Notes under the pieces: model-generated | Seen by the model: the letters and a program-made list of their open reading frames with translations, nothing else | What the model was told of the DNA's origin: nothing | The model's database searches: none | Part shown: piece by piece, positions 1 through 12,523 of the stretch | How positions within the stretch are numbered: position 1 is the first letter of the stretch | How the letters are laid out: every line of letters starts with the position of its first letter | Source of the DNA: a virus | Taxonomy: Duplodnaviria > Heunggongvirae > Uroviricota > Caudoviricetes | IMG/VR virus record: IMGVR_UViG_2541047958_000002 | Location: 1 to 12,523 of that record | Direction: 5' to 3' (one strand) | DNA length: 12,523 nucleotides | Translations under genes and position numbers: made by a program

Positions 1-216
1 TTATTGGTTATCCGCTTTAGAAGCATTGACCTGATCTTCCCATGATGCGATCTCAGATTCCCGCCAGCGCTTAGGGTTGCCGGGAATCGTTGGTTTAGGG
101 AAGGGGCAGGTGAAGCTCGAAGGCATGCGCGCCGGTGTACTCCAAAAGTACAGCGTACTCCGGGAAATTTTGTATCGAGCCAGGATGTCACTGGTAAACA
201 AGATGCCGTCATTCAT
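1..216 (-). CDS. alpA: AlpA-family phage transcriptional regulator / excisionase-like DNA-binding protein (71 aa)
   Basis: Complete minus-strand ORF (stop at 1-3, ATG at 214-216). The product has an 'ISRSTLYFW' HTH-like segment and an 'FPKP...RWRESEI..WE' tail that match my recollection of AlpA/Phage_AlpA proteins. A GGAG lies about 9 nt upstream of the ATG on the minus strand. Family assignment is from memory, not a search. Confidence 0.7.
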   Translation of the reverse strand: MNDGILFTSDILARYKISRSTLYFWSTPARMPSSFTCPFPKPTIPGNPKRWRESEIASWEDQVNASKADNQ

Positions 217-233
217 TATTCTTTACTCCAGGC

Positions 234-260
234 AAAAAAATGCCCTCGCAATGGAGGGCA
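234..260 (-). terminator. Intrinsic terminator-like hairpin in the alpA 5' region (minus strand)
   Basis: Plus strand reads A7 (234-240) then TGCCCTC-gcaatg-GAGGGCA (241-260). On the minus strand this is a 7-bp GC-rich stem with a 6-nt loop followed directly by seven U. It sits 18-44 nt upstream of the alpA start codon. Confidence 0.5.
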
Positions 261-362
261 AATGGGGGATAACGTGGCAGTGCATTCGCACCCAATATCC
301 CATGCTTTGTCGATACCGATGTTTCTGGCGACGTTCGTGCTGTCAGCTGAAGATAGCGGGAT

Positions 363-899
363 GTGGCGGAATATGTCGGCGTTCAACATGCGCAGGCCGT
401 GAAGCTTTGTTATCGGATAGCAGACCTGTACGGCTTAACCTCACCAACTGGCAGCGAAACATCATTCACTTTCGACGCTGTTGAAGCTCGTGATTTCATT
501 GATGGCGGTTGGTCATGCCAGGAGTACGTGGAGCTTGAACGCTTTCAGGAAGCGATAACCAACCATACCGGTGACTCCAACAATATGGTTGAACCTGTAA
601 CGACGGCTTACAAATTGCCAGATGATTTTATTTGCATGCTTACTGGTAGAGCTAAATATCTTCGAGAAAAAGGAGAGATCAAATCACCTGAGCTTTTGGA
701 GCGAGCCGCTGCCGCGCTTCAGGGGGAAAGCGTTAATACCTCCTCCATTCCTAATGGATGGAAACTCGTTCCGATTGACCCAACAAAAGATATGTTGCGT
801 GCGGGGCAATCGGTGGTTGGGTTCTGGCTGAATACAGTGCATTGCTACTCGAAAATGCTCGCCGCTGCACCAGCAGCACCGCGGCAGGAGGTGAAGTGA
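363..899 (+). CDS. Hypothetical phage protein (up to 178 aa; start uncertain)
   Basis: Longest plus-strand ORF in this interval and co-directional with the downstream genes. The first start is GTG at 363; the in-frame ATG at 586 (MVEPVTT...) is an alternative. No family recognised. A terminator follows at 936-958. Confidence 0.45.
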   Translation: MAEYVGVQHAQAVKLCYRIADLYGLTSPTGSETSFTFDAVEARDFIDGGWSCQEYVELERFQEAITNHTGDSNNMVEPVTTAYKLPDDFICMLTGRAKYLREKGEIKSPELLERAAAALQGESVNTSSIPNGWKLVPIDPTKDMLRAGQSVVGFWLNTVHCYSKMLAAAPAAPRQEVK

Positions 900-935
900 C
901 GAACAAGATGACGAGAGTTACCATAGATATAAATC

Positions 936-958
936 AAGGCCCTTAGGGGCCTTTTATT
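936..958 (+). terminator. Rho-independent terminator downstream of the 363-899 ORF
   Basis: AAGGCCC-ttag-GGGCCTT stem-loop (936-953) running into TTTTATT (952-958). Confidence 0.6.
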
Positions 959-992
959 CTATGATAAACGGACTTTGTTTGAGAGTGACGCC

Positions 993-1319
993 ATGAAGCC
1001 CAAGAAGCTAAATGCTGAGCAGCAATACAAATTAGACCTTGAATTGGTCAAGAAGAAGCCTGCGAACCGGACCGAGGCAAAAGCCCATTTGGCCGCACAG
1101 TTACGGATCAGCAAGTACAAGACGCAGACCTCTTCCAAAATCCGCGTAGGCAGTTTTAAGGGGCGGAAGAAGGTACATTTCAGTAAGGCGGAACAAGCAG
1201 CCAGGGCAGCACTAAATAAAGCAAATGCCATTAGATTTTCCGAAGGGGAGGTCGAGTCCGTCGATACGGATAGAATCTCAGAAAGTAACAAACGCTGGCG
1301 CGGGAGAACTGCTGACTAA
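993..1319 (+). CDS. Hypothetical lysine-rich small protein (108 aa)
   Basis: ORF 975..1319 in the track begins at TTG; the ATG at 993 ([11 protein letters not shown]...) is the more plausible start. Basic, Lys/Ala-rich composition. Its stop overlaps the next start (TAATG at 1317-1321). Confidence 0.5.
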
Positions 1320-1573
1320 TGTCTGACTGGAATATTGCTGCAAAGCCGCAGGAAGAACGCGACAAGGTTAATGTTGACCTGGCAGCCTCCGGCGTGGCCT
1401 ACAAAGAGCGCCTGAATATGCCGGTTATCGCCGAGCAGGTAGCTCGTGAGCAACCAGAGCATCTACGAGAGTATTTCATGGATCGCGTGCGGCACTATCG
1501 CGAGCAGAGCGTTGCATTGCCTAAGGCATCTGATCCTCGCTACATTGAAATGACTGAGCAAAATGCAAAATAA
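1319..1573 (+). CDS. Hypothetical small protein (84 aa)
   Basis: ATG at 1319 overlaps the upstream stop (translational coupling). No overlapping ORF on the opposite strand is better. No family recognised. Confidence 0.5.
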
Positions 1574-1589
1574 ATTTCAGGAGATTCAA

Positions 1590-1850
1590 ATGGAAAATAG
1601 CATGAGCATCACAACGATTCTTGAAAGAGAAAGGGAGCTTGATGATCTTGTTAAGGTGTGCCTCGATGAGCTTGAGGTGATTGACATCCATGGACAGGTT
1701 TACTCAATTCCTCTTTCCCACCTAACGAACGCAGAGCAGGTGGTACATTGGGTCTGGAAGATTGCTGAGAGAGGTGATTTCGCCATGGATGTTGTTCGTA
1801 AATTTACTGAAGTTGCGTCCCATCATGTGGGGTTTGACGCTAAAAAATAA
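1590..1850 (+). CDS. Hypothetical small protein (86 aa)
   Basis: ORF 1563..1850 in the track; the internal ATG at 1590 is preceded by AGGAG (1578-1582) with about 7-nt spacing. No family recognised. Confidence 0.5.
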   Translation: MENSMSITTILERERELDDLVKVCLDELEVIDIHGQVYSIPLSHLTNAEQVVHWVWKIAERGDFAMDVVRKFTEVASHHVGFDAKK

Positions 1851-1920
1851 ATCGCCAAGGACCGATTTAATAGCTATACACATGTTTTACATTCCGCTCG
1901 CATCTTAACCAAATCTTTCT

Positions 1921-1929
1921 TGGTATAAT
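1921..1929 (+). promoter_or_regulatory. Candidate extended -10 promoter element (TGgTATAAT) upstream of the zinc-ribbon gene
   Basis: TGGTATAAT at 1921-1929 matches the extended -10 consensus TGnTATAAT. There is no convincing -35 at 16-18 bp, which is acceptable for extended -10 promoters. It lies about 40 nt upstream of the ATG at 1969. Confidence 0.4.
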
Positions 1930-1968
1930 GATTTTTTACAGGCGAATGACGTGTGAGGTCCGGGATTT

Positions 1969-2166
1969 ATGACTTGTGAAGTATGTAACAAACAACCCCT
2001 TGGACGAAGGGACCCGCCTCTTCCATGCATGGTCTTGCAAGGCGATAAATCCGTTAACTTCAGCCATCACGGACGCGAAGCAAACGAGCGTTATTACAAA
2101 TGCTCGGAATGCGGTCATGAGTGGATGAGAGAGACAGGAAATTGCGGCGAAGGCTGGATTCCTTAA
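1969..2166 (+). CDS. Small zinc-ribbon protein (65 aa), possibly an Ogr/Delta-like zinc-finger regulator
   Basis: ORF with GAGG about 10 nt upstream of the ATG. Cys pairs CEVC (res 3-6) and CSEC (res 45-48), with an 'ERYYKC' context before the second pair that resembles the 'ERYHQC' of P2 Ogr as I recall it. The spacing between pairs differs from Ogr, so the family call is tentative. Confidence 0.45.
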   Translation: MTCEVCNKQPLGRRDPPLPCMVLQGDKSVNFSHHGREANERYYKCSECGHEWMRETGNCGEGWIP

Positions 2167-2190
2167 CTATATATTGTCGCTATTCGCAAA

Positions 2191-2219
2191 TTGATTTTCT
2201 CAAATCATCCCGCCATAAT
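2191..2219 (+). promoter_or_regulatory. Candidate sigma70 promoter (-35 TTGATT, 17-bp spacer, -10 CATAAT)
   Basis: TTGATT at 2191-2196 and CATAAT at 2214-2219 with a 17-bp spacer. It would start a transcript running through the dyad elements at 2245-2343 into the ORF at 2370. Confidence 0.3.
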
Positions 2220-2244
2220 TAAGTCGCAGTCGGCCTGAACACCC

Positions 2245-2291
2245 GATTGTGACTTCTGCGCATTTAAGGGGACTTAAATGCGACCACAATC
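2245..2291. promoter_or_regulatory. 47-bp imperfect palindrome (nested inverted repeats) in the leader
   Basis: Outer arms GATTGTG (2245-2251) / CACAATC (2285-2291); inner 10-bp arms CGCATTTAAG (2259-2268) / CTTAAATGCG (2273-2282) around a 4-nt centre GGGA. No T-tract follows, so it is not a canonical terminator. It may be an operator or an RNA structure. Confidence 0.35.
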
Positions 2292-2313
2292 TGAAATCCT
2301 CACCTTGTCACAG

Positions 2314-2343
2314 ATGCAGAAATGCACCTGCGATTTTCTGCAT
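2314..2343. promoter_or_regulatory. Second dyad-symmetry element (9-bp arms, 12-bp spacer) just upstream of the RBS
   Basis: ATGCAGAAA (2314-2322) and its reverse complement TTTCTGCAT (2335-2343), separated by 12 nt. It ends 16 nt before the AGGAGG at 2360-2365. Confidence 0.35.
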
Positions 2344-2369
2344 TCTGCGGTTTCCGTTAAGGAGGCCGT

Positions 2370-2768
2370 ATGACTCTTCCAGTATCGGAGTATGGGAACG
2401 TCAATCACTGGTTGGCAAATGGTGGCGGCTGGTTCTTCAATCTCGACTATGACAAAGAAGTGCTGGCTAAGGCTCTGGTTCACAAAGCAGCTGAGCTGCC
2501 ACTCGTCATCGAGCTGGTTACCGCTGAGCGTAAAATCGTTATCTGCCACGCTGACTACCCGCATAACGAATATGCGTTCGATAAGCCCATCCCGAAAGAT
2601 ATGGTCATCTGGAATCGTGAGAGGGTTAAGTCCTGGCAGTTATACGTCAAGACAGTGGACATCGATGCTGACTCCGCGTCGGTCACTCTGTCCGTCACCA
2701 ACCCGCTGAACAACAACATCGGAAGGCTCTATGACCCAACGGAATATACCGGCCTGCAGTACCTCTGA
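2370..2768 (+). CDS. Lambda-type Ser/Thr protein phosphatase (PPase/PrpA family) homolog, N-terminally truncated and C-terminally divergent (132 aa); probable remnant
   Basis: Residues about 8-88 ('[22 protein letters not shown]...ELPLVIELV...VICHADYP...VIWNRER') match the middle of lambda phosphatase / E. coli PrpA as I recall them. The upstream GDxHG, GDxxDRG and GNHE metal-binding motifs are absent: the frame is closed by a TAA at 2358-2360 and there is no room upstream. The C-terminus lacks the GH motif. A strong AGGAGG (2360-2365) sits 4 nt before the ATG. Confidence 0.6.
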
Positions 2769-3147
2769 TTTTGCTCGGAAGGTGATCGGCGTGCCGTGGG
2801 CTAACCGGGCCTGCTCGTTCGATAGGGTCGACTGCTGGGGCTTGTGCGTGCTGTATTACCGGCACGTTCTCGGCATTGAACTGCACCAGACGCCGGACTA
2901 CGAAGCCGGTGAGGACTTCTTCACCTGCTATCAAAGTGATGTCGTTTTCTGGCACCCGGTGGATAAGCCGGTCGAGGGCGGGATATTCGTCGGGTACCGC
3001 GGCGCGCAACCGGCGCATGTTGGCCTGGTACTGAACCGGCAGGCGCTGCACTCGCGCGGCGAGAACGGAAGCGTACGCATGGACTCGTTGCTGGTCATTC
3101 AGCGGGCATTCACCAAAGTGGAGTTTTTCGAATATGGCGCTGGTTGA
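2731..3147 (+). CDS. NlpC/P60-family peptidase domain protein, phage tail protein K-like (138 aa; start uncertain)
   Basis: Contains 'DCWGL' (catalytic-Cys context of NlpC/P60, cf. DCSGL) and a later 'HVGLV' His motif. It overlaps the upstream ORF by 38 nt if the ATG at 2731 is used; GTG at 2791 preceded by GAAGGTGA is an alternative start. It is shorter than typical K proteins and has no JAB/MPN region. Confidence 0.55.
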
Positions 3148-5611
3148 GATATCGAATTTTCCAGGAACGCCTAAGCTGCGTTGCAGGGTGCCAAACGGCA
3201 CCCTTTTTTATGACTGGCTGGCGGCCAATGATGGTAACTTTCACCGCGATCTGCTGATCGTCCGCAACGGCGTAAAGTTGGGCGAAGATGATGAGCTGGC
3301 GTTTGAGCTATGCGAACTGGACACCGTCCAGATATTCGACCAGCCGAAGGGCATCATTGGCGACATTCTCAGCCCGATCTTCAAAGTTGTCGGCGCGGTA
3401 TTCTCTTTCCTTGCGCCAAAGCCGGCGATCGCCAATACAGGCGGCAACACGATTGACTCGCCAAACAATAGCCTGACCGGCCAGACGAATACGGCGCGCG
3501 TCTACAAAGCAAAACCGGACATCTACGGACAAATCCGTTCGTTCCCGGACCTGATTCAGGAGTCGCTTTTCGAATACGTGCGCCAGAGCGACACGGATGG
3601 CGGCCTGAAGTACGTTACTGAGTGGATGTGCATCGGGATCGGCAAATATGATTACGAGTCTGTGCGTTATTCAGAGTCCAGCCTAGGAAGTATGGCCGGT
3701 GCAGAGTTCCAGTTTTACCAGCCGGGTGAAGTGATCCCTACCATCAACGAAGGCTACGGGTTCGACGACGTGGATGGCCAGGAAGTGCCCGGGCAAAACG
3801 AATCGGATAATTTCCCGATCGAGACTGCTACGGCTACTACGGTTGTGAGCGGAACTTACTCCGGCGGGCAGATTGCGGTAAAAATTATCAAGCAGGCTGA
3901 GTTTGATTACTTCATGGGCCTGGTCCTGCCGCACGCCGTTACTTTTACGATTAACGTCACCTACAGCACGCCAACCGGCAACGTAACGCAGGATGTCGAT
4001 TTCTCCGGCACGCTGATATCGGCTGTCGAAACAAACGACGGCGCGGTGGTTAACCCGGTCCGGTGGTACACATTCACGATGAGGGATCTAATTGGCCCTC
4101 CTGACGTGCCGGCAACGGCGACTATTAACACGACGAAGTTCATCCTTAACGATAACGAAGCGCTAGTGGTAGGCCCGTTCTTCTCGCCGGTCGAATCTGC
4201 CCAGTTATGGCTGCACACTCAGGTGCAGCTGGGCGGCAAAAAGTCCGCTGACTGGAAGGTCACGATCTGGAAAATTGACGATTACTACAACCAGGTGCCG
4301 GGTACTCAGCAGACGTTCACGTATCATCAGGGGACGCCGCACAAATCATCGAGCGAAGTATTTTACCGTACCGATAAGCTGACGCCGACCGGCGGTTTCG
4401 GCAAGTACGCTATTAACTTCCAGCGCACAGATAACTCGAGTGATGCCTCTATCCTGAAGGTTGAGGAGATCCACTCGGTCAACGTCAGAACCAACGTCGT
4501 GCATCCAACCGATACGCTGGTGCGCGTGAAGGTAAGGGCGACGGAGAACGCCCTGGGCAGCCGTGACCGCAAGTACAACGCACTGGTGACGCGTCAGACC
4601 ATCAGTTACAACCTGACGACGCAATCGGTGGATTACACCCTGCGGGCCTCGCGCTCGTTCGCTGATGCAGTGGCGCATACCTGGCTGATTATGGGCGAGC
4701 AGCCGGTAAGTAGCATTGACCTGTACGGGCTGTACTCGATTGCCGAAAGTCTGCCGGATGAGCGCCTGGGTTACTTCGACTACACGTTTGACGACGAGAA
4801 CGATTCGTTGGGCGACAGGGTGCAGGCTATCTGCAATGCGGCCTCTGTCATTGCGTACTGGGACGATGGCGTGCTGACGTTTACTCGCGATCAGAAGGTT
4901 GAGTACCCGGCGGCCGTATTCAACCGGGCCAATATGAAGACGGACGAGTACAAAATGACGTACGAAGCCACTCTTCCTGGCGGCTATGACGGCGTGCAGG
5001 TGTCCTACGTTCATCCGACAACCAACAACAAGACGTACATCAACTACCGCGTGCTGAACGGCGCTATCGTCGAGCAGGAAGCGGAGAACCCGAACAAAAT
5101 CGATATAGTCGGCTTCCGTAACGAGTATCAGGCGCGGGAACGCGCGCTGCGCGAAACGAAGCGCCTTATCTACTCCCGGGTGAAGATGAACGCCAAAGTG
5201 TTTGAGGACGGGATCATGCAGGTCGGTAGCGTCGTGCAGATAGCGGATATCTACGACAGCAACCAGCAGCAGGGATACATCACAGGCCGCGCCGGGAATA
5301 GCTTTGATACAAGCGAGCCAATCGCGTTTACCGGCTCGATGTATGTCCTGGTGACCGACAGCCTGGGCAACCCGACTCTGCGCTATCCGGCGACGGCACG
5401 CGCCGACACGAAGTACGGATTCACCGCGGCAATACCCGACATTCAACTTAATATCTGGAACGGAGACACCGTGCAGCTCCCGTCGCGCTACCTCATAGCA
5501 ACGGTGGAGGAGCTGAACAGCCAACTATGGACGGTCAATAGCATCAAGCCGAACACAGATAACACGGTATCTCTGACCGTCGCGGAATACAGCGACGCCA
5601 TCTACCAATAA
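3134..5611 (+). CDS. Phage tail tip / host-specificity protein (825 aa) with a tail-assembly-protein-I-like N-terminal region and a J-like central region
   Basis: Long ORF whose ATG overlaps the upstream stop. The N-terminal about 150 aa ('...FLAPKPAIANTGGNTIDSP...YGQIR') resembles lambda gpI as recalled. Later segments ('DRVQAICNAASVIAYWDDGVLTFTRDQ', 'GFRNEYQARERALRETKRLIYSRVK...VGSVVQIADIYD') resemble conserved blocks of lambda host-specificity protein J. Codon composition matches the flanking genes. Confidence 0.75.
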   Translation: MALVEISNFPGTPKLRCRVPNGTLFYDWLAANDGNFHRDLLIVRNGVKLGEDDELAFELCELDTVQIFDQPKGIIGDILSPIFKVVGAVFSFLAPKPAIANTGGNTIDSPNNSLTGQTNTARVYKAKPDIYGQIRSFPDLIQESLFEYVRQSDTDGGLKYVTEWMCIGIGKYDYESVRYSESSLGSMAGAEFQFYQPGEVIPTINEGYGFDDVDGQEVPGQNESDNFPIETATATTVVSGTYSGGQIAVKIIKQAEFDYFMGLVLPHAVTFTINVTYSTPTGNVTQDVDFSGTLISAVETNDGAVVNPVRWYTFTMRDLIGPPDVPATATINTTKFILNDNEALVVGPFFSPVESAQLWLHTQVQLGGKKSADWKVTIWKIDDYYNQVPGTQQTFTYHQGTPHKSSSEVFYRTDKLTPTGGFGKYAINFQRTDNSSDASILKVEEIHSVNVRTNVVHPTDTLVRVKVRATENALGSRDRKYNALVTRQTISYNLTTQSVDYTLRASRSFADAVAHTWLIMGEQPVSSIDLYGLYSIAESLPDERLGYFDYTFDDENDSLGDRVQAICNAASVIAYWDDGVLTFTRDQKVEYPAAVFNRANMKTDEYKMTYEATLPGGYDGVQVSYVHPTTNNKTYINYRVLNGAIVEQEAENPNKIDIVGFRNEYQARERALRETKRLIYSRVKMNAKVFEDGIMQVGSVVQIADIYDSNQQQGYITGRAGNSFDTSEPIAFTGSMYVLVTDSLGNPTLRYPATARADTKYGFTAAIPDIQLNIWNGDTVQLPSRYLIATVEELNSQLWTVNSIKPNTDNTVSLTVAEYSDAIYQ

Positions 5612-5632
5612 GAACCGTCCCCGACCAACCAG

Positions 5633-5658
5633 ACCCGGCCACCGTGCCGGGTTTTTTT
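5633..5658 (+). terminator. Rho-independent terminator between the tail-tip gene and the tail-fiber gene
   Basis: ACCCGGC-caccgt-GCCGGGT stem (5633-5652) followed by seven T (5652-5658). The T-tract ends 11 nt before the ATG at 5670. Confidence 0.75.
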
Positions 5659-5669
5659 ATGGAATCAAT

Positions 5670-8102
5670 ATGGCTACGCAACCTACAAACTTGCCTGTTC
5701 CAAGCGAATCACCACGCGACCTGAAGTTCAACGCCGGGAAAATTGATGAATTTGTAACTTCCCTGGCTGAATGGTATGTGGACCGCTTCGGAATAAAGCA
5801 TTACACCATCGAAGGACTGAAGAATCTGGTACTGCAGCAGATTTATAATCTCGGCTGGAATCCGGTTGGAACATTCCAGGGCGGTGCAACTCTGACAGCG
5901 GCTGGTGACATCATCCAGGACACAAGCACGGGTGTATGGTATCGCTGGGATAACCTGGCAACACTGCCTAAAGTTGTTCCTGCTGGCTCAACTCCTGCAT
6001 CATCTGGTGGGATCGGAGAAGGTAAGTGGCTCGCCGTTGATGTGAGTGATGTGCTTAGAAAGGAGCTGGCTGAACCTGGTGGTGCTGGCATGATGGGTTA
6101 TGACGACTTTGAGTCTTATCAGGATGGTACTGTTGGCAGTGCCATTAAGGATCAGAACTTCAGAAAAAAAATAATCTACAAACTTCCATTTCAGTTCACT
6201 GGGTATTCTGATGCACTGGCGGCAATTGGAGCTGGAAGCATCATATACCCGCAGGGTGCTGACTATGATGATGATGGTCTACTCTTCATTAACTATGTGC
6301 CTAATGCTGGAGGGTCGCTTAGGGTAATAGTTGTTTATAACCAGGCAGGAGAGCAAGTAACGTGGTTTTATAGTCCAAACAGTAGTAATCAGTCTGTGGC
6401 TATATATGGCGGAAGCTCATCACGTAGATTGTATGACAGACGTCTTGGGGATGATTTTGTTTATTATTATGACATAACCACATTACCCGCAGCAGGTAGC
6501 ACGCTTTCAGGGCACACAATAACGACAATTCAGTCGGCTGGATCACATATGTGCATTGAGGGTAATTTACTCTTCTGCACATTAAACGCGACACCGATAG
6601 GAACATCGCAGTCGCAGACGGTTGTAAATTCGTACCGTGTTGATACTGGTGAGAAGCAGGGAACTATAAATGTCTCCCAGATGTTGACAGGGTTTGCAAC
6701 TCCAGAGCTTTCGCCAACCTACTATTACAGGGTATGGAAAATTCAAGGTTTGGCATACAAGAATGGAATCCTCCATATTGGGGTTGGTGGGAGCTATCGC
6801 CCTACATTAGATGATGCAAAATATCCTGTGCATGATTACGGCGTCCTCCGAGTGTCACTCTCTGGTGAGTTAATAGACCACTCTGTTGTGAAATCAGATA
6901 AGTTGATGACATATCTGGCATCAAACGGTTGCACCGTCTCAAGAACAGAGTCAGAGGGATGTTTCAAGCACCCTGACGGCACTATCCATTCAATTCTTAT
7001 TGGTGATATGGCTGAATCATCTCCTAGCACACCCAATGGCATTGTTATAATGAGGGAGTTTTCACGGGATGGATTTAACATGCTGGATGCCGCTTCCGGA
7101 TATTGTCCTCTCCCAACGTATGGATTTAATCGACTTATGCGATCTGAGCAGGGGGCATTGTGCGATCCCGTATTAAACACAGTATTTAGTAGCGTAACTC
7201 AGATTCTTGATTTAATGGCTTCATTAAACTTAACTGAGTTCTCATGGTTTTCAACCATAGCACCTTCACTAACCACAATACCCGGCCTTAATTACGTAAT
7301 AGGACAAATCTACCATGTTACCAATCTTAACAATGGAGGATTTGTTATTGAATCTTCTGGTACTGCGCTTGGGATGGAAGTGTATAGCGTAGTTGGAAGT
7401 CTTGGATCATGGACTGCTACAAGGCGTTCCATTTCAGGTTCAAAGATTAATATTAATAATGCAGGTAGCTTAGGACAAATTTCATTTACAGCATCTACAG
7501 GTAAAGAAGTTGGTATTGCCCAAATAAGCTATACAGGGACTTCTACACCTCTTGTTATCGGCTCTGGAGGAACTTTAAACCCTAATGCTATTTTCTTCTT
7601 CACAAATCCGACAGTGACAAGTGAAAGTGGGGGAACTCAATCTTTTCAGATTTACAATAATCAGGTACTACCTGGCGTCTCTAGCGCGCAGTCTAACGGG
7701 AGTGCGTCATTTAAATGGACTCAGTTCTACGCCGATTCTGGTTCCATTAACACATCTGACAGAAGGAAGAAGACAGATTTCGAGGATATAAGTGAAGCCG
7801 AAAAGCGTGTAGCTATCAAGATTAAGGGAATGATTTGTCGGTACAGAATGAAGGATGCGGTAGCTATTAAAGGCGATGGCGCAAGATATCATATAGGTGC
7901 AATTGTTCAGGATGTTATCTCTGCGTTCGAGGATGAAGGACTAGACCCCATGCTTTACGGTATGGTTTGTTATGATAAGTGGGATAAGAAGGAACCAATA
8001 TATGATGAAAATGGTGCTATGATATTCTCAGGTTGCGAAGCCGGTGATGGTTACTCTTTAAGATATGATGAGATGTTATGTTTCATTATCTCAGCCATTT
8101 GA
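5670..8102 (+). CDS. Tail fiber / tailspike protein (810 aa) with a C-terminal intramolecular chaperone (peptidase S74-type) self-cleaving domain
   Basis: The N-terminal about 150 aa carry a 'YRWDNLATLPKVVPAGSTPASSGGIGEGKW' block that I recall from endosialidase-type and related tail fibers. The C-terminal about 115 aa ('TSDRRKK...ARYHIGAIVQDVISAF...MVCYDKW') match the Ser-x4-Lys autoproteolytic chaperone domain. The central 500 aa are unassigned and AT-rich. Confidence 0.85.
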   Translation: MATQPTNLPVPSESPRDLKFNAGKIDEFVTSLAEWYVDRFGIKHYTIEGLKNLVLQQIYNLGWNPVGTFQGGATLTAAGDIIQDTSTGVWYRWDNLATLPKVVPAGSTPASSGGIGEGKWLAVDVSDVLRKELAEPGGAGMMGYDDFESYQDGTVGSAIKDQNFRKKIIYKLPFQFTGYSDALAAIGAGSIIYPQGADYDDDGLLFINYVPNAGGSLRVIVVYNQAGEQVTWFYSPNSSNQSVAIYGGSSSRRLYDRRLGDDFVYYYDITTLPAAGSTLSGHTITTIQSAGSHMCIEGNLLFCTLNATPIGTSQSQTVVNSYRVDTGEKQGTINVSQMLTGFATPELSPTYYYRVWKIQGLAYKNGILHIGVGGSYRPTLDDAKYPVHDYGVLRVSLSGELIDHSVVKSDKLMTYLASNGCTVSRTESEGCFKHPDGTIHSILIGDMAESSPSTPNGIVIMREFSRDGFNMLDAASGYCPLPTYGFNRLMRSEQGALCDPVLNTVFSSVTQILDLMASLNLTEFSWFSTIAPSLTTIPGLNYVIGQIYHVTNLNNGGFVIESSGTALGMEVYSVVGSLGSWTATRRSISGSKININNAGSLGQISFTASTGKEVGIAQISYTGTSTPLVIGSGGTLNPNAIFFFTNPTVTSESGGTQSFQIYNNQVLPGVSSAQSNGSASFKWTQFYADSGSINTSDRRKKTDFEDISEAEKRVAIKIKGMICRYRMKDAVAIKGDGARYHIGAIVQDVISAFEDEGLDPMLYGMVCYDKWDKKEPIYDENGAMIFSGCEAGDGYSLRYDEMLCFIISAI

Positions 8103-8302
8103 AAAATAACGATGACCTTCCAATGTTAAAACATTGATTTGTGCTGTTTTTTATTCATTGTTGCAAGGTCATTGTATATTATTTGAATGGGTTTAGACTC
8201 TAGTATTTCGAATTGTTTAATGGTTTTAACTAATCATGAGTATGGATGGCAACAGCAAAATCGTGTTAGGATAGGAAAAAATCGATTTCAGGACTCAAAT
8301 CA

Positions 8303-8336
8303 ATGAATGACTCACTTCAATGACTCACTTCAATGG
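8303..8336 (+). repeat. Tandem 13-bp direct repeat (ATGACTCACTTCA x2, with partial flanking copies)
   Basis: ATGA / ATGACTCACTTCA (8307-8319) / ATGACTCACTTCA (8320-8332) / ATGG. The unit length is not a multiple of 3, so successive ATGs fall in all three frames. Confidence 0.6.
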
Positions 8337-8498
8337 CTAACTCGAATTGTTGGCGTATATTGTCTGATAGATATGATAATGATTCTGTTGGGTATCAACG
8401 AGTGGTCGAAGTGGGTCATTTTCTCAAATTGCATCATGATTGCTATATGGGGATGGTCTGAGCGTAACAATTACAGGGGCTCAAGTAATGGAGAGTGA
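8307..8498 (+). CDS. Hypothetical small hydrophobic protein (63 aa, two predicted transmembrane segments)
   Basis: ORF in AT-rich DNA where chance ORFs are rarer. Hydrophobic stretches 'IVGVYCLIDMIMILLGI' and 'WVIFSNCIMIAIWGW'. Its ATG is the first copy of the 13-bp repeat. The RBS is weak. Speculative. Confidence 0.3.
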   Translation: MTHFNDSLQWLTRIVGVYCLIDMIMILLGINEWSKWVIFSNCIMIAIWGWSERNNYRGSSNGE

Positions 8499-8709
8499 AG
8501 AGTTTTTAGCTAGCCTCAAGCCTGGAGAAAAATGGTTGGCTGAAGGGGTGGTAAGAAGTAGAAAAGAAGGTGCCTGGAGTGTTATCCGTATATCTGATAA
8601 CGATAGCCAATGGGAGGCTACCTTCATGGGAAGAACATTGCCGGTGCTTTTCAGATCTAAAGAGTTGGCACTAATCGCTTTACTTGAACTATCTGTATGC
8701 CACGACTAA
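8488..8709 (+). CDS. Hypothetical small protein (73 aa)
   Basis: ORF 8440..8709 in the track begins at TTG; the internal ATG at 8488 is preceded by AGGGG (8475-8479). Its stop is followed by the bidirectional terminator. No family recognised. Confidence 0.4.
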   Translation: MESEEFLASLKPGEKWLAEGVVRSRKEGAWSVIRISDNDSQWEATFMGRTLPVLFRSKELALIALLELSVCHD

Positions 8710-8711
8710 AA

Positions 8712-8731
8712 GCGGCGTAAATTTACGCCGC
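8712..8731. terminator. Bidirectional intrinsic terminator between convergent genes
   Basis: Perfect 20-nt palindrome GCGGCGTAAATTTACGCCGC (8712-8731). It lies 3 nt after the plus-strand stop (8707-8709) and 8 nt after the minus-strand stop (8739-8741). A/T runs flank both sides; the U-tract is better on the minus strand. Confidence 0.55.
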
Positions 8732-8738
8732 ATAAATA

Positions 8739-9710
8739 TTAGACTACTCTTCGCAAAATCGGTATTGCAGTAAATATTTTGACAATGATAATTGAAGATG
8801 CAATGTAAAATACTGCCGCCAGAGGAATGCCCCATACATAATTTGTAATTGGCAGGTACTTCCATGAAGTGAAAATAATTAATGGGTGAACTAGGTAGAT
8901 GCCAAATGCATGCTTTGAAATTATTTTTATTATTGGGTTTGTTAAGTTAGATATGTTCTTAGCATAACCAATGCAAGCAAATGTCGTAGCTATCGCCGTA
9001 ATGGCTATAATCGGGCTGAAGTTCTTCAAGCTCATTCCTTGATATTCGCCATGAACTATCCCTTTGTTAACATAAATGGTAATAACGGAAAGTGTCAATG
9101 ATAGGATAGCAAATACAATTCTGTTCTTAATTATCAAGTCTTCCTTACGTGCAGCTATGTATCCTGCAAAAACATAGAGCATTAAATAACTTGCAAATGG
9201 AACGCTTATCTTTGGAACGGGTATTCCTATTGCATTAAGCTCCGGGTATAAGGATGTGCTGTAAAACAGAATTGCGAATATCAATAGGCTATAGCGTGTT
9301 CTTATCTCTCTACATCCCATAACTATCATTGGAACAAAAAGATAAATTGCAATGTAATCGTACATAAACCAAAGGTGTATGCTTGATGGTTTCATAGGGC
9401 TAAAACTATCTATGCCTGCATTTTTAAAAATTATCAAATATGCTGCGTAAATTATCCACCAAAACGCCAGTGGAATTACAAGGAGATTTATTCCTTTAAG
9501 GATGAAGCCTTCGAATTCAATTTTTTTGTTAGCATAGAGAAAGCCGGTTATGACAATGAATATACCAATGCATTGTTTCGAAATTGCACTATAAACATTG
9601 GCCCACTCCCAGTCAGGCGCGAGTTTGGCCCCAACAGGCCCGGCGCTGGCATGCAGTAGAACTACCAATATTATTGCTATGAAACGTGCAAAGACCACTC
9701 CATAATTCAT
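8739..9710 (-). CDS. Integral-membrane acyltransferase, acyltransferase-3 (AT3) family, probable polysaccharide O-acetyltransferase (323 aa)
   Basis: Minus-strand ORF with GGAG 7-8 nt upstream of the ATG. Strongly hydrophobic multi-pass protein with an N-terminal 'FARFIAIILVVLLHA' motif typical of AT3 proteins (cf. 'LRAIAVLxVVxFH'). AT-rich codon usage. Confidence 0.8.
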   Translation of the reverse strand: MNYGVVFARFIAIILVVLLHASAGPVGAKLAPDWEWANVYSAISKQCIGIFIVITGFLYANKKIEFEGFILKGINLLVIPLAFWWIIYAAYLIIFKNAGIDSFSPMKPSSIHLWFMYDYIAIYLFVPMIVMGCREIRTRYSLLIFAILFYSTSLYPELNAIGIPVPKISVPFASYLMLYVFAGYIAARKEDLIIKNRIVFAILSLTLSVITIYVNKGIVHGEYQGMSLKNFSPIIAITAIATTFACIGYAKNISNLTNPIIKIISKHAFGIYLVHPLIIFTSWKYLPITNYVWGIPLAAVFYIASSIIIVKIFTAIPILRRVV

Positions 9711-9753
9711 GAATGTCTCCAGTTGACGGGCTTACGCCCGTCTTAGTTGATTA

Positions 9754-11712
9754 TTATTTATTAAGCACACTTAAGATCTTATCTTTAAATCCGTTCACTG
9801 CCATCTGTGAGCCATCTTTTGATAAATGCCCCCCATCTGAATACATGATTTTGTCATTGAATATTGAACGGCAGGTTCCGTTAGAACAAAACACTTCATA
9901 CGGGTCCATGTAGTAAGTATTTCTCATTGACTGGGCAGCCTTCTTTAACATCTGATTTAGTTTGTACGAGTGAGCAGTTCTCTCTCTTACATTCAATTGT
10001 TCAGAACACGGACCTGTCGCAAATGATGGTCTAGTGATACAAGCCACCACACCATTTTTATCGCCAACCCGAGGAGGAGAACCGATAATAATCAAAGGCC
10101 TTCCTCCTGTGTCTTTTCTTAGTAACTTAAGTTGCTCGATAACATATGAATAATATTCATCTTTATCCTTAAAGATGATTTTTTCGCCAGTTTTACGGTT
10201 GGTAAGAACATCTTTTGATGTATCCCAAGAGTGCGAAATAATGAGAGGCTTACTGTTACCTTTAAGCAAGTTGTACAAGTTGCCATATTGCCCGGAGCAT
10301 AGATTGTCCGGCCCGGTCCCTGGCGTTCGGATTGAGTCTCTGCTTATTAAGCACCCATGAGCAAACAAGGTGTCAGCTTTAATATGGTTATCTTTAAAGA
10401 AATTATCCAGGCCATATGCATACTGATTGGCATAACTATCGCCAGCCACTATTACTGATGATTCCTTTACATTTAAATCACCTATTGTTTTTTTGTAGCC
10501 ATAATCGTGACCACCATATTGCTCAAAGTGATATTGGCCTGCATTCTCGGCCAAGGTTACGTATTTTTCATTAACACGCCATGTCATGCCGTTACTTTCA
10601 TAGGAGTATTTTCCTGCGAAAATCAAGATGGCAATGATTGAACCTACGCACGAATATACAGTAACAATTTTAAATTTATCGAGTTTAACGTTATGGAGTC
10701 GGAATGTTTTCTCAATACAGTAAAACGTGATCAGGGAAAAAATTGCTGTGATTATTATCATGGCAATTTTATCAATGATATCTGGCGTAGTTGCAATATA
10801 GTAGTTATAAAAAACTATCACGGGCCAATGTACAAGATACAAAGAGTAACTGATTAACCCTATGTATATGGCAACTTTGTTATCTGTTACAACTGAAACT
10901 TTAGCATTGCCAGCGTAAATGGCCATGCCCGCGCCAATACATGGGATTAATGCCATTACACCTGGGAATTGAGTTGTTTCATTGTACATAAACATGCTGA
11001 TAATAATAATTGCTATACCAGTCATGTATAGTACATTAAGAATCATACCTTTTGGCTGTTTTAATCTTTCAAGGAATACGACTATAGCCCCAACAGCAAA
11101 TTCGAATGCTCTGGATGTTGTTAGAAAATATGACTTATTAGAATCTGAAGGTAGTAGTGATTGTGAGTAAATAATGCTCACTACAAACATTATACTGATT
11201 ATAGCGATAATGCCATTTTTTGATTTTAATTTGTACGCCAACGTTAACAATAAAGGCCATACGAGATAGAATTGCTCTTCGACAGACAAAGACCATGTAT
11301 GTAGCAATGGTTTTGTGATTGATGAAGCGTCAAAGTAGTCACTACTTAACCAAAAGAAGAAGTTTGATAAAGAAATGACTGCAAATATGAGAGACTTTCC
11401 AAAATCAATCATTTGCTGCGGTGAAAATAAGAGCATGGCAGCAATTAAGCTCAGAGCACTTACAAAAAATAACGCTGGAAGAAGCCGCAATGCACGACGG
11501 GTATAAAATTGACCAAAAGTAAAAGCGTTTGATTCAAGTTGCCCAGTAATATTTCTGGTTATCAAATAGCCGCTGATAACAAAGAAAACGTCTACGCCAA
11601 CGAAACCACCAGGGAAGCTAAGCCCTATGTGGAAGAAAATCACGCCAAGGACGGCTATTGCACGTAATCCGTCAATGTCTCCACGATACTTTTTTGCGAC
11701 AACTAAGTTCAC
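9754..11712 (-). CDS. OafA-like O-acetyltransferase: N-terminal AT3 membrane domain fused to a C-terminal SGNH hydrolase-like domain (652 aa)
   Basis: Minus-strand ORF with a GTG start. The N-terminus 'DIDGLRAIAVLGVIFFHIG...VGVDVFFVISGYLIT...TWSLSVEEQFY' matches AT3 signature blocks as recalled for Salmonella OafA. The C-terminal soluble domain has SGNH-like blocks ('VAGDSYANQ', 'DGGHLS'). It sits 43 nt upstream of the 323-aa AT3 gene on the same strand, so the two are likely an operon. Confidence 0.85.
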   Translation of the reverse strand: MNLVVAKKYRGDIDGLRAIAVLGVIFFHIGLSFPGGFVGVDVFFVISGYLITRNITGQLESNAFTFGQFYTRRALRLLPALFFVSALSLIAAMLLFSPQQMIDFGKSLIFAVISLSNFFFWLSSDYFDASSITKPLLHTWSLSVEEQFYLVWPLLLTLAYKLKSKNGIIAIISIMFVVSIIYSQSLLPSDSNKSYFLTTSRAFEFAVGAIVVFLERLKQPKGMILNVLYMTGIAIIIISMFMYNETTQFPGVMALIPCIGAGMAIYAGNAKVSVVTDNKVAIYIGLISYSLYLVHWPVIVFYNYYIATTPDIIDKIAMIIITAIFSLITFYCIEKTFRLHNVKLDKFKIVTVYSCVGSIIAILIFAGKYSYESNGMTWRVNEKYVTLAENAGQYHFEQYGGHDYGYKKTIGDLNVKESSVIVAGDSYANQYAYGLDNFFKDNHIKADTLFAHGCLISRDSIRTPGTGPDNLCSGQYGNLYNLLKGNSKPLIISHSWDTSKDVLTNRKTGEKIIFKDKDEYYSYVIEQLKLLRKDTGGRPLIIIGSPPRVGDKNGVVACITRPSFATGPCSEQLNVRERTAHSYKLNQMLKKAAQSMRNTYYMDPYEVFCSNGTCRSIFNDKIMYSDGGHLSKDGSQMAVNGFKDKILSVLNK

Positions 11713-11825
11713 GAGAGAAGCCTACTAAAGTTAAAACGCGCATTTTAGTAGCTATCAGGACATGAAAAAAGAGAAAACTAGTAAATTATCAATAAACTAT
11801 ATCTACGTTCCTGAGCGAATGTGTT

Positions 11826-11834
11826 GGTGATCAC
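11826..11834. promoter_or_regulatory. GGTGATCAC palindromic motif, copy 1 (contains a Dam GATC site)
   Basis: Exact 9-mer containing the 8-bp perfect palindrome GTGATCAC. It sits in the divergent control region between the acyltransferase operon and the LexA-box promoter. Confidence 0.3.
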
Positions 11835-11882
11835 AAAACATGAGCAACTAATACAATTGTTTGCAATCCTTCAGACACATAA

Positions 11883-11891
11883 GGTGATCAC
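11883..11891. promoter_or_regulatory. GGTGATCAC palindromic motif, copy 2 (contains a Dam GATC site)
   Basis: Identical 9-mer 57 bp from copy 1, with similar A-rich 3' flanks (aaaaca / ggaaaaa). Confidence 0.3.
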
Positions 11892-11929
11892 GGAAAAATA
11901 GTATTGCCATAATTTAGAGGATAGATGTG

Positions 11930-11945
11930 CTGTATTTATATACAG
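11930..11945. promoter_or_regulatory. LexA (SOS) box, CTGT-N8-ACAG
   Basis: CTGTATTTATATACAG matches the E. coli LexA consensus CTGTATATATATACAG at 15 of 16 positions. It overlaps a candidate -10 (TATATA 11937-11942); TTTAGA at 11913-11918 is a possible -35. A T7 run follows. Confidence 0.6.
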
Positions 11946-11979
11946 TTTTTTTGGGGCTATATGCCGCATCGTTCAAATA

Positions 11980-12201
11980 TTGAGATCGCCTTCATGGGCC
12001 TCGATTGTGCATGAAAGGTCAGGCCGCAGGATTGTGAAAACTGCTGATTTTGTTCAGGAACTTCTAAAGGTCAGCTGGGACTTCAGCATGGAAGAGGCGA
12101 ACCTTTGGATAGCAAGGTACACAACCTGCTTCAAAGACATCACTCCTGATCACGGGGAGAACAAAACCTGGTTCATGTACAACCCGAATGGAGGGCTTTG
12201 A
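11980..12201 (+). CDS. Hypothetical small protein (73 aa; start uncertain, TTG in the track)
   Basis: ORF lying between the LexA box and the UmuD'-like ORF. Its stop (12199-12201) is 1 nt from the next ATG. No canonical ATG start with an RBS was found, so the call is weak. Confidence 0.3.
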   Translation: MRSPSWASIVHERSGRRIVKTADFVQELLKVSWDFSMEEANLWIARYTTCFKDITPDHGENKTWFMYNPNGGL

Positions 12202-12202
12202 T

Positions 12203-12523
12203 ATGGGGTTCCCAAGTCCAGCAAGGGATTACATCGAAAGTAAGCTTAATGTGAATGTTATATGCGGAGTCACCACTAACAGCCTAGTGATTGAGACATC
12301 GCAAGGATTTGCTGTGATAGAAAAGGGCATGAAGCCATCGCCAGACAGTACCTACCTGATTTCGTATTCAGGAGGTTGTCACTTTGCCAAACGTAGAGGC
12401 GATGCGCTGATAACGATAGATGGTGAAGTACTTGAAGGAGAGGTTCTGGATGAGGTGGATGTGAAGGGAATTCTGACCTACCTGATTAACCGGGCGGTGG
12501 ATGATGATAACCCGGTGATTTAA
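12203..12523 (+). CDS. UmuD'-like protein (S24 LexA/UmuD superfamily), beginning at the GFPSPA cleavage-site motif (106 aa; track ORF starts at 12188)
   Basis: The ATG at 12203 is preceded by GGAGGG (12190-12195). The product starts 'MGFPSPARDYIE', matching the 'C/GFPSPAxDY' auto-cleavage junction of UmuD/MucA. Downstream blocks 'STYLISYSGGCH' and 'RRGDALITIDGEV' align loosely with 'ATYFVKASGDSM' and 'HGDIVIAAVDGEF' of UmuD. The protein is shorter than UmuD. The stop is at the window end. Confidence 0.5.
   Translation: MGFPSPARDYIESKLNVNVICGVTTNSLVIETSQGFAVIEKGMKPSPDSTYLISYSGGCHFAKRRGDALITIDGEVLEGEVLDEVDVKGILTYLINRAVDDDNPVI

Follow-up and report, generated by a model that had tools for sequence, protein, structure and literature searches.

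A low-G+C spike and acyltransferase block in a temperate siphovirus prophage remnant is probably a composite of separately recombining cassettes

The locus considered here lies in a 12,523-nucleotide (nt) stretch of DNA from a virus of the Caudoviricetes (IMG/VR record IMGVR_UViG_2541047958_000002, positions 1 to 12,523; hereafter the window, with coordinates counted from its first letter), in which a GC-rich tail-tip gene of the TipJ family is followed by a low-G+C block of 5.85 kb that contains most of a tail-spike gene and, on the opposite strand, genes for a 323-residue acyltransferase with a single AT3 domain (AT3) and for a 652-residue AT3-SGNH fusion. The question raised by this locus is whether the block was acquired as one horizontally transferred module, as an earlier note made from the sequence alone had proposed, with its left junction inside the spike (fiber) gene and a new spike specificity arriving together with surface-modification genes, or whether its parts have histories of their own. 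Our analyses favor the latter, and we consider it probable, at roughly 0.8, that the block was put together from cassettes which recombine separately in a hypervariable slot, and that it was not imported as one unit.

The composition of the window was analyzed by a sliding G+C profile, per-segment values and single change-point fits (maximum likelihood), with 500 shuffles of each type. G+C amounts to 0.553 across 2627-6099, where the tail genes are located, and to 0.393 across 6100-11950, and the fitted change points at 6098 and 11953 fall very close to the borders of 6100 and 11950 that had been set by eye. For the left step, the likelihood ratio came to 113.6 nats, against shuffle maxima of 9.0 with single bases, 18.5 with 50-nt blocks and 54.6 with 300-nt blocks, and the observed value was reached by none of the 500 shuffles of any type. 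Segment by segment, G+C is 0.554 in the TipJ gene, 0.510 in spike codons 1-144, 0.424 in spike codons 145-810, 0.387 in the spacer 8103-8738, 0.369 in the AT3 gene, 0.379 in the AT3-SGNH gene, 0.345 in 11713-11979 and 0.472 at the umuD-like end (last 0.5 kb). The supposed fall from about half to one third is therefore real but was overestimated in depth, as the block stands at about 39%, with 42% in its spike part and 37-38% in the acyltransferase genes, and only some 300-nt windows of the profile reach 0.32-0.33. The step is strongest in the G+C of third codon positions (G+C3), which reaches 0.71 in the TipJ gene but only 0.47 across spike codons 1-144, 0.36 in the C-terminal part of the spike gene and 0.36-0.37 in both acyltransferase genes, with one step down at the TipJ/spike boundary and another near codon 100-150. 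Because this drop occurs at synonymous sites, the shift is not merely an effect of amino acid composition.

The left step coincides with a switch of homology inside the spike gene. Megablast of 5300-6500 against 5426 complete Escherichia coli genomes returned 31 matches, 28 of which extend from the left as far as 5672, 5713, 5746, 5758-5767, 5815-5823 or 6055-6070; the other three enter from the right, beginning at 6117-6126, and 6071-6116 is crossed by none of the 31. At least six breakpoint classes lie within the first 140 spike codons. Pairwise blastn likewise showed that homology to the backbone relatives ends within 5672-6088, and in an alignment of five loci the window tracks EF7-18-51 (EF7) and M10 to about 6085 and E47 from about 6117, which places the breakpoint at 6071-6116, around the change point at 6098. 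Judging from these alignments, the junction that the earlier note had located inside the gene is a true recombination joint. It contains a GAGxxG[YF] linker motif that recurs in the spikes of E47 and of M10, the latter being unrelated in other respects, and this motif could be a source of short homology for the exchange.

Upstream of the joint, a backbone-specific adaptor segment (5670-5846) precedes the anchor. Most backbone relatives break within it, at 5672-5823, and the draft relative L010 is unrelated to the window there (45% identity), its match starting at 5847. Over the anchor, M10-type and EF7-type relatives match through 6070-6088, and the identity of L010 given in Table 1 applies to 5850-6085. 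When the two parts of the spike protein were searched separately, they led to different phages, as expected for a mosaic: residues 1-149 matched 1107 phage records, with Salmonella phage Vi II-E1 (72%) as the best followed by ENT47670 and CobraSix, whereas residues 150-695 matched 41 quite different records, all at no more than 26% identity. A single relative matching the spike gene in full, with the same flanking genes, was not found, although L010 passes straight through 6098 at 87-96% identity. Since L010 shares the anchor/receptor joint, the fusion is older than this prophage; recombination between anchor and receptor part had thus been recognized correctly, but the event did not take place here.

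At the right border, homology to L010 and to other E. coli loci resumes from 11923 and homology to EF7 at 11930, the first position of a LexA box, which was read directly close to where it had been expected (near 11.95 kb). Between the two borders, the backbone relatives replace the whole interval of 5.8-11.9 kb. The slot of EF7-18-51 contains a GDPD-type spike gene, a hypothetical gene and a gene for a 345-residue acyltransferase before homology returns, that of 20A24 encodes a GDSL esterase spike and a 361-residue acyltransferase, and that of M10 a 665-residue spike and two acyltransferases; all three have their acyltransferase genes on the opposite strand, with an S24 peptidase gene coming after them. 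Among the 5426 complete E. coli genomes, the C-terminal spike part was found in three, the acyltransferase pair in two and both together in none, and no genome covers at least 80% of the window. The contents attributed to the block by the earlier note, namely the chaperone domain of the spike, two small open reading frames (ORFs) and both acyltransferase genes, are all present.

Table 1. Nucleotide identity of five related loci to the window, segment by segment.
Locus	N-anchor	Receptor part	S74	AT3	AT3-SGNH
L010	95.8%	85.4%	no match	92.1%	replaced by gtrABC
E47	no match	91.2%	93.4%	65.7%	absent
L012	no match	67.7%	93.4%	65.6%	absent
L023	no match	86.1%	97.4%	70.9%	absent
L017	no match	fragment	no match	79.3%	78.2%

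Within the block, the nearest relatives differ from segment to segment (Table 1). E47 and L023 are closest to the window in the spike part, and L010 in the AT3 gene, whose product (93% amino acid identity) is the closest among the non-remnant loci. E47 illustrates the other side of this reversal, as its AT3 is only about 66% (nt) and 59% (amino acids) identical to that of the window and stands beside a receptor part that is about 91.2-91.6% identical at the nucleotide level, in E47 as well as in C6 and JML285, on a phiV10-type anchor. Such a reversal of rank order goes beyond differences in rate and argues for recombination inside the block. The intramolecular chaperone segment (S74) of the spike gene swaps independently and has its own history, because its identities are discordant with those of the receptor part in L012 and L023, and because it is unmatched in L010. 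At the place of the AT3-SGNH gene, L010 and L011 carry a complete gtrA-gtrB-gtrC glucosylation operon (10485-14237), so that a cassette for acetylation and one for glucosylation can replace each other at this site. Moreover, the insert between the spike and AT3 genes (8103-8708) is absent from L010, L017 and E47, and in L010 and L017 a spike or spike-remnant ORF ends only 45-48 nt from the AT3 gene.

The receptor part, in turn, is exchangeable at the anchor boundary. Related receptor parts (92-94% amino acid identity) sit on three types of N-terminal anchor: Tail_spike_N in the window and P0002; the epsilon15/phiV10 type in E47, C6, JML285 and L012, with the E47 N-terminus being 80% identical in amino acids to the phiV10 fibre; and the T7 type (PF03906) in L023, a locus of a Hafnia sp. 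metagenome-assembled genome (GCA_036655315.1, contig JAVVQH010000191.1, 1745-5440). This last locus lies between a terminase fragment and lysis genes and encodes an 884-residue fibre that has a T7-type N-terminal domain and whose last 665 residues are 94% identical to the window spike; the fibre gene is convergent with that of an AT3 60% identical to the window AT3. The same receptor part has thus been assembled, in a genome assigned to another genus, on another tail type. An island of low G+C formed by the C-terminal spike part and the AT3 gene recurs in E47 (0.42-0.45 and 0.35-0.37, with flanks of 0.49-0.54) and in L023 (0.426 and 0.35, with flanks of 0.53-0.55), implying that the composition belongs to the cassettes and not to the junction in the window. 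The coordinates of all features are collected in Table 2.

Table 2. Features of the spike and acyltransferase slot and its borders in the window.
Feature	Coordinates	Strand	Description
TipJ-family tail-tip protein	3134-5611	+	825 aa (amino acids); NCBIfam NF040662, E=1.6e-147; conserved GC-rich left backbone
Spike gene	5670-8102	+	810 aa; Tail_spike_N, receptor-binding part and Peptidase_S74
Adaptor segment	5670-5846	+	spike codons 1-59; backbone-specific
Tail_spike_N anchor	5847-6070	+	about aa 60-134
Recombination joint (from alignments)	6071-6116	+	linker ...EPGGAGMMGYDDF... (aa 135-147; GAGMMGY = aa 138-144)
Receptor-binding part	6117-7754	+	aa 150-695; predicted beta-propeller platform and distal domain
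Peptidase_S74 intramolecular chaperone	7755-8102	+	predicted self-cleavage at Ser696, motif SDRRKK
Insert	8103-8708	+	orphan DNA (8103-8355) and 8356-8708 with ORF 8488-8709 (73 aa)
GC-rich hairpin	8712-8731		GCGGCGTAAATTTACGCCGC; terminator-like, from a pattern scan; between convergent ORF73 and AT3
AT3-only membrane acyltransferase	8739-9710	-	323 aa; convergent with spike; putative O-antigen O-acetyltransferase
AT3-SGNH fused acyltransferase	9754-11712	-	652 aa; OafA/OafB type; separate cassette
AT-rich divergent control region	11713-11929		right border of the slot
LexA (SOS) box	11930-11945	+	CTGTATTTATATACAG; perfect CTGT-N8-ACAG; followed by the 73-aa ORF and the UmuD'-like gene
Right backbone	11980-12523	+	73-aa ORF (phrog_3893) and short UmuD'-like S24 peptidase

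The domain content of the spike protein agrees with the division suggested by the alignments. Tail_spike_N (PF18668) was found at residues 67-123 (E=8e-14); the anchor matches gp13 residues 1-152 of PDB entry 9occ_G (E=9e-33), and residues 67-144 match CBA120 TSP3/TSP4 and other tailspike entries. The receptor-binding family is small, with 11 homologous clusters among 5.8 billion proteins, and its similarity to staphylococcal and Weissella phage tail proteins is 23-25%, next to a weak match to phrog_22693. An AlphaFold model of residues 145-810 was of moderate confidence, with a predicted local distance difference test (pLDDT) score of 57, with 70-90 over model residues 25-320. Its best Foldseek matches were the receptor-binding proteins of phi11 (Gp45), 80alpha and P68 (5efv, 6v8i, 9m7x, 6iab; E=2e-13 to 5e-9, probability 1.0, template modeling score about 0.3); sialidase propellers also match at lower rank, and structural hits in a viral library are consistent with a propeller. 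Going by this model, the receptor part is likely to have a propeller fold, and this fold class is better supported than the phi11-specific family. Distant E. coli phage homologues carry the label 'Endo-N-acetylneuraminidase', which we did not accept as a function given an identity of 25%; the label presumably comes from the common S74 chaperone domain. The chaperone domain (PF13884) was detected at residues 696-758, from profile position 1, with PDB matches 3gud, 7y5s and 4uw8; the predicted cleavage serine is Ser696 in SDRRKK.

The two genes on the opposite strand are surface-modification genes, as had been surmised, and belong to the phage 'O-antigen acetylase' type by family match. Like the Oac proteins of Sf6 and phiV10 (about 320-340 residues, multi-pass), the shorter protein consists of a single AT3 domain (PF01757 at residues 6-310, E=5.6e-35; phrog_3333 'O-acetyltransferase') with seven long hydrophobic stretches in a crude hydropathy scan. 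It contains R9-X10-H20 and FIVITG at position 51 (F51, G56), and V16, H20, F51, G56 and G183 are invariant in an alignment of nine AT3 sequences. It thus retains the residues that do not vary among characterised AT3 acetyltransferases, a His in transmembrane helix 1, the Phe and Gly of FFXISG and a Gly in helix 6. Its gene adjoins and converges on a spike or fibre gene in the window, L010, E47/C6, L012, L023 and L017. The longer protein combines PF01757 (residues 12-329, E=7e-31) with PF19040 (residues 410-642, E=1.5e-29) and matches phrog_6705 'O-antigen acetylase' over its full length (E=2.4e-159). In OafA, R/K-X10-H in transmembrane helix 1, a GG-F/Y-XGV-D loop, FFXISG and RXXR are needed, together with a Ser/Asp/His triad of the SGNH domain, whose Ser lies in GDS (block I) and whose Asp and His lie in DxxH (block V) (PMC7448272). 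All the motifs required in OafA/OafB can be read in the 652-residue protein (R17-X10-H28, GGFVGVD at 35, FFVISG at 43, RALR at 73, GDS at 424 and DGGH at 626), which is thus predicted to be an enzyme of this type. A sequence search of solved structures with this protein gave nothing at E<=0.01. Among its named homologues, those of Citrobacter and Morganella come nearest with 54% identity, and those of Yersinia and Pseudomonas reach about 40%. It is 98-99% identical in PK5 and CUPF12, and in L017 its gene is 78% identical at the nucleotide level and contiguous with the AT3 gene.

Both genes have the attributes of a moron cassette, being located near the prophage end on the strand opposite to the late operon, with low G+C and with the hairpin at 8712-8731, apart from which a terminator/promoter scan found no enrichment over shuffled sequence. 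The hairpin lies within the AT3 cassette as bounded by L010 (from 8709) and L017 (from 8704). A scan of the GTDB species-representative genomes with the 323-residue AT3 returned no relatives and hence pointed to no source of the cassette beyond Escherichia and Hafnia. In PK5 (L001, 9001-14356), a cassette of ORF73, AT3, AT3-SGNH and umuD is 97-99% identical to the window at the nucleotide level and resides in a remnant beside tRNA-Asn and mtfA, where an IS5 sits in the AT3 gene; in CUPF12 (H45, H63), an IS1 breaks the AT3-SGNH gene. These insertions indicate that the conversion genes are being inactivated in those strains.

The type of acyltransferase follows the type of spike. The window AT3 is 93, 59 and 58% identical to acyltransferases encoded behind spikes of the same family, but shares no more than 18-23% with the acyltransferases that accompany spikes of other types on this backbone. 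Its clade comprises four clusters among the 5.8 billion proteins, and every member with a known context is convergent with and adjacent to a fibre of this receptor-binding family. Two relatives from the receptor family lack an acyltransferase and occur in phages with DNA polymerase or recombination genes. The spike domain and the AT3 clade co-occur in five contexts, namely four phage backbones (the TipJ siphovirus, another phage that has Tail_spike_N and a tape measure of the lambda type, podoviruses of the epsilon15/phiV10 type and a phage with a T7-type fibre) and the L017 remnant. We tentatively suggest, at somewhat less than even odds, that the propeller receptor domain and the small AT3 form a two-gene 'recognise-and-mask' unit for one surface polysaccharide, which was grafted onto at least four tail architectures and whose genes still recombine within the unit. 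If this is true, the receptor of a spike domain that cannot be annotated otherwise could be predicted from its AT3 partner, and vice versa, and the pair would mark a rare phi11-like propeller spike lineage in enterobacteria.

These data can be combined into a working model. The interval of 5.7-11.9 kb is probably the hypervariable slot in which a family of temperate siphovirus prophages carries its genes for host range and lysogenic conversion, anchored on the left by the TipJ gene and the first 25-140 spike codons and on the right by the putatively LexA-controlled umuD-like operon. Cassettes from a common low-G+C pool (Tail_spike_N anchor, receptor part, S74, the 0.6-kb insert, AT3 and AT3-SGNH) would recombine separately in at least five pieces, the receptor part being joined at the conserved GAGxxGY linker (nt 6071-6116). 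The spike trimer would fold with the help of S74, which would then cleave itself off at Ser696, and the folded spike would bind a surface polysaccharide. In the lysogen, both acyltransferases would be read from the opposite strand and may transfer acetyl groups from cytoplasmic acetyl-CoA to the polysaccharide in the periplasm; phages with the same spike would no longer adsorb to the acetylated surface, and the serotype would change. What the sequences themselves show is the composition step, the breakpoints, the domain content, the intact catalytic motifs and the joint occurrence of this spike domain and this AT3 clade; by analogy with the systems discussed below, the acceptor would be the O-antigen, its modification would block this spike, and the genes would be expressed. 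As for the mechanism of exchange, a repeat search of 5600-12200 revealed only short, chance-level matches and no transposon-like flanking repeats, and on this ground transposition was rejected.

The pairing of a receptor-binding protein with an enzyme that masks its receptor is already known from phiV10, Sf6 and BTP1. The Uetakevirus phiV10 has the same gene order, with a fibre gene (+) and an AT3-only oac (-) directly downstream, and its oac product is described as acetylating the host O-antigen and conferring superinfection immunity (phiV10 record; PMC9558356). In E47, C6, JML285 and L012, the receptor part of the window type even follows a phiV10-type N-terminus and precedes an AT3 of the window clade. 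However, the window AT3 is only 26% identical to phiV10 Oac, the receptor parts are unrelated, phiV10 is a podovirus whereas the window backbone is that of a TipJ-type siphovirus, and the window carries a second, AT3-SGNH acyltransferase. The latter shares its two-domain architecture with BTP1 GtrC (= OafB) and with the chromosomal OafA of Salmonella. The BTP1 gene is convergent with the adjacent tailspike gene, and its product shields the O-antigen from that spike (PMC4413052), whereas in the window the AT3-SGNH gene is one gene away from the spike gene, behind the AT3-only gene. In the tailspikes of epsilon34 and P22, residues 1-115 are conserved and the C-termini occur in three forms (PMC2629481). 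A conserved N-terminal anchor with unrelated C-terminal parts is common to the spikes of P22, epsilon34, Sf6, CBA120/G7C and the window, and Tail_spike_N, present in the window spike, was first described in CBA120 TSP1 and G7C gp66; a broader study reports large-scale fragment shuffling in receptor-binding proteins (PMC10684548). In contrast to the P22-like and CBA120/G7C spikes, the window anchor joins a siphovirus TipJ-type tail tip, and its exchangeable part is a predicted beta-propeller plus S74, not the beta-helix of the P22-like spikes. The phages whose receptor proteins best match the spike model (phi11, 80alpha, P68) are staphylococcal, and thus differ from the window in having Gram-positive hosts, with wall teichoic acid as receptor.

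The window corresponds to positions 4332-16854 of a 65.7-kb contig (L004), with 100% identity over 12523 nt. The flanks of the prophage in L004 are ordinary chromosomal genes, with yciB, yciC, ompW and trpA on the right side, and the element extends from an integrase gene to the UmuD'-like gene (L004 3170-16854, about 14 kb). Intact relatives are found at the same chromosomal site in E. coli 20A24 and EF7-18-51. Nin-region DNA (NinI phosphatase-like; HK225/phi80 match) stops at 2628, and homology to intact relatives sets in at 2626-2628, halfway through a minor tail gene. This is an internal deletion junction, which has created a chimeric 132-residue ORF (2370-2768). As nin-region DNA abuts the middle of a tail gene, the prophage is deleted and devoid of head, tail-tube and lysis genes; the element also lacks a tape-measure gene, with the TipJ (825 aa) and spike (810 aa) ORFs being intact. 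Enterobacter phage CobraSix and many E. coli prophages share the TipJ gene at 84-96% nucleotide identity. In some backbone relatives (L73, M37H, 23CRST004), an HNH endonuclease gene lies between the TipJ and spike genes, and in 23CRST004 homology to the window ends at 5672, at the spike start codon. Further to the left, 1319-1573 (+) encodes a homologue of the DNA polymerase III theta subunit (PF06440, E=6e-35), a segment 98% identical at the nucleotide level in some E. coli prophages and also present in phage HK639.

On the right, the backbone is 92.8% (L010), 81.9% (EF7, 11930-12206 only) and 97.7% (PK5) identical at the nucleotide level. The UmuD-like assignment is based on phrog_3469 (E=8.6e-41), and the LexA box in front of the S24 peptidase gene suggests an SOS-regulated umuD-like operon. 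The preceding 73-residue ORF is named 'DNA polymerase V' in the RefSeq annotation. After UmuD' (L004 16854-17090), there is neither a Y-family polymerase nor an SOS-response-associated peptidase (SRAP) gene, both of which stand before yciB in the intact 20A24 relative.

Regarding the insert between the spike and AT3 genes, ORFs are present at 8307-8498 and 8440-8709, and gene callers as well as the RefSeq annotation call only 8488-8709. The latter belongs to no Pfam, NCBIfam or PHROG family and had no phage tblastn hit. The segment 8356-8740 is 99.7% identical in PK5 and CUPF12 only, sensitive blastn of 8103-8740 gave nothing beyond these two, and 8103-8355 was covered by none of the 5426 complete E. 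coli genomes and by none of the phage hits obtained with the whole window. The PK5 breakpoint at 8356 was discarded as a module boundary, since it abuts a truncated integrase and is the deletion end point of the PK5 remnant. A perfect 13-nt tandem duplication (ATGACTCACTTCA x2) at 8307-8332 opens a 63-residue ORF with one hydrophobic stretch. The IMG/VR locus L020, with only a rearranged AT3 fragment beside a gtrC-sized ORF, added nothing.

How far these observations separate the possible origins of the block can now be considered. The origin proposed in the earlier note, one donor and one event for the whole 5.85-kb block with crossovers in the spike gene and in the LexA-box region, was right in that, set against the backbone relatives, the interval has been exchanged in its entirety as far as the LexA box; the uniform G+C3 of the three genes and the return of homology at 11923-11930 fit such an event, as does the joint occurrence of ORF73, AT3, AT3-SGNH and umuD at 97-99% in PK5 and CUPF12, and a block built stepwise elsewhere could still have arrived in one step. 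A single shared history, however, conflicts with the finding that, among the sampled genomes, the C-terminal spike part and the acyltransferase pair occur together only in the source lineage, with the reversed rank order of the nearest relatives, with gtrABC in place of the AT3-SGNH gene in L010, with the extra insert at 8103-8708, with the separate swapping of S74, and with the anchor/receptor junction that L010 already has, and we regard it as unlikely. That the drop in G+C merely reflects hydrophobic membrane proteins rich in Ile/Phe/Leu/Lys plus a beta-rich fibre, the junction being no more than a domain boundary, appears very improbable: O-antigen-related genes are generally AT-rich in enterobacteria, and the two acyltransferases are multi-pass proteins with a G+C of 0.36-0.41 at codon positions 1 and 2, but the largest change is at third positions (0.71 to 0.36), the drop extends to the soluble spike domain, the composition steps at either end lie where homology breaks off, and the same domain sits on three unrelated anchors. 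Least probable of all is an assembly artefact or a unique recent rearrangement without biological standing. The lack of a complete E. coli genome that covers most of the window and the internal deletion junction at 2626 could be read in this way, yet the identical 810-residue spike occurs on at least seven contigs, three of which were examined and show the same arrangement around the spike gene (SRR11949102, ERR9953953 and ERR4556438, separate sequencing runs), four further places have mostly the same neighboring genes, and L004 matches the window throughout amid ordinary chromosomal flanks.

Several observations weigh against the composite reading and the model built upon it. L017 keeps the fibre end, the AT3 and the AT3-SGNH genes in the same order as the window, with 8704-11797 contiguous at 78%, so that part of the block has evidently moved as a unit for some length of time. 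In the AT3-only protein, no RXXR occurs near residues 60-80, its sole RXXR being REIR at position 134. The RXXR of loop 2-3 is essential in Oac and OafA/B and 'highly but not absolutely conserved' (PMC7448272), and its absence lowers our confidence that the AT3-only enzyme works exactly like Oac. In the promoter scan, the number of sites did not exceed that in shuffled sequence. With a pLDDT of 57 for the spike model, the fold assignment and any enzymatic activity are uncertain; as there are no head, tube or lysis genes, the spike gene of this locus cannot currently act in a virion; and the link of these proteins to the O-antigen, and to each other, is one that we infer. Composite cassettes in a hypervariable slot nevertheless remain our preferred explanation of the block.

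The findings leave the current understanding unchanged, because the principles involved were already established in P22, Sf6, epsilon34, phiV10 and BTP1. The locus is, rather, a clean and well-delimited case of temperate phages varying host range and surface chemistry together, with a fixed slot, conserved flanks, domain-level joints in the spike gene and an AT3 type that follows the spike type. It also shows that a 14-kb remnant can retain conversion genes along with an intact spike gene. For annotation, the co-occurrence of spike and AT3 yields the hypothesis that both act on one O-antigen. The most interesting residue is a rare propeller-type receptor domain that co-occurs tightly with one small AT3 clade in five contexts.

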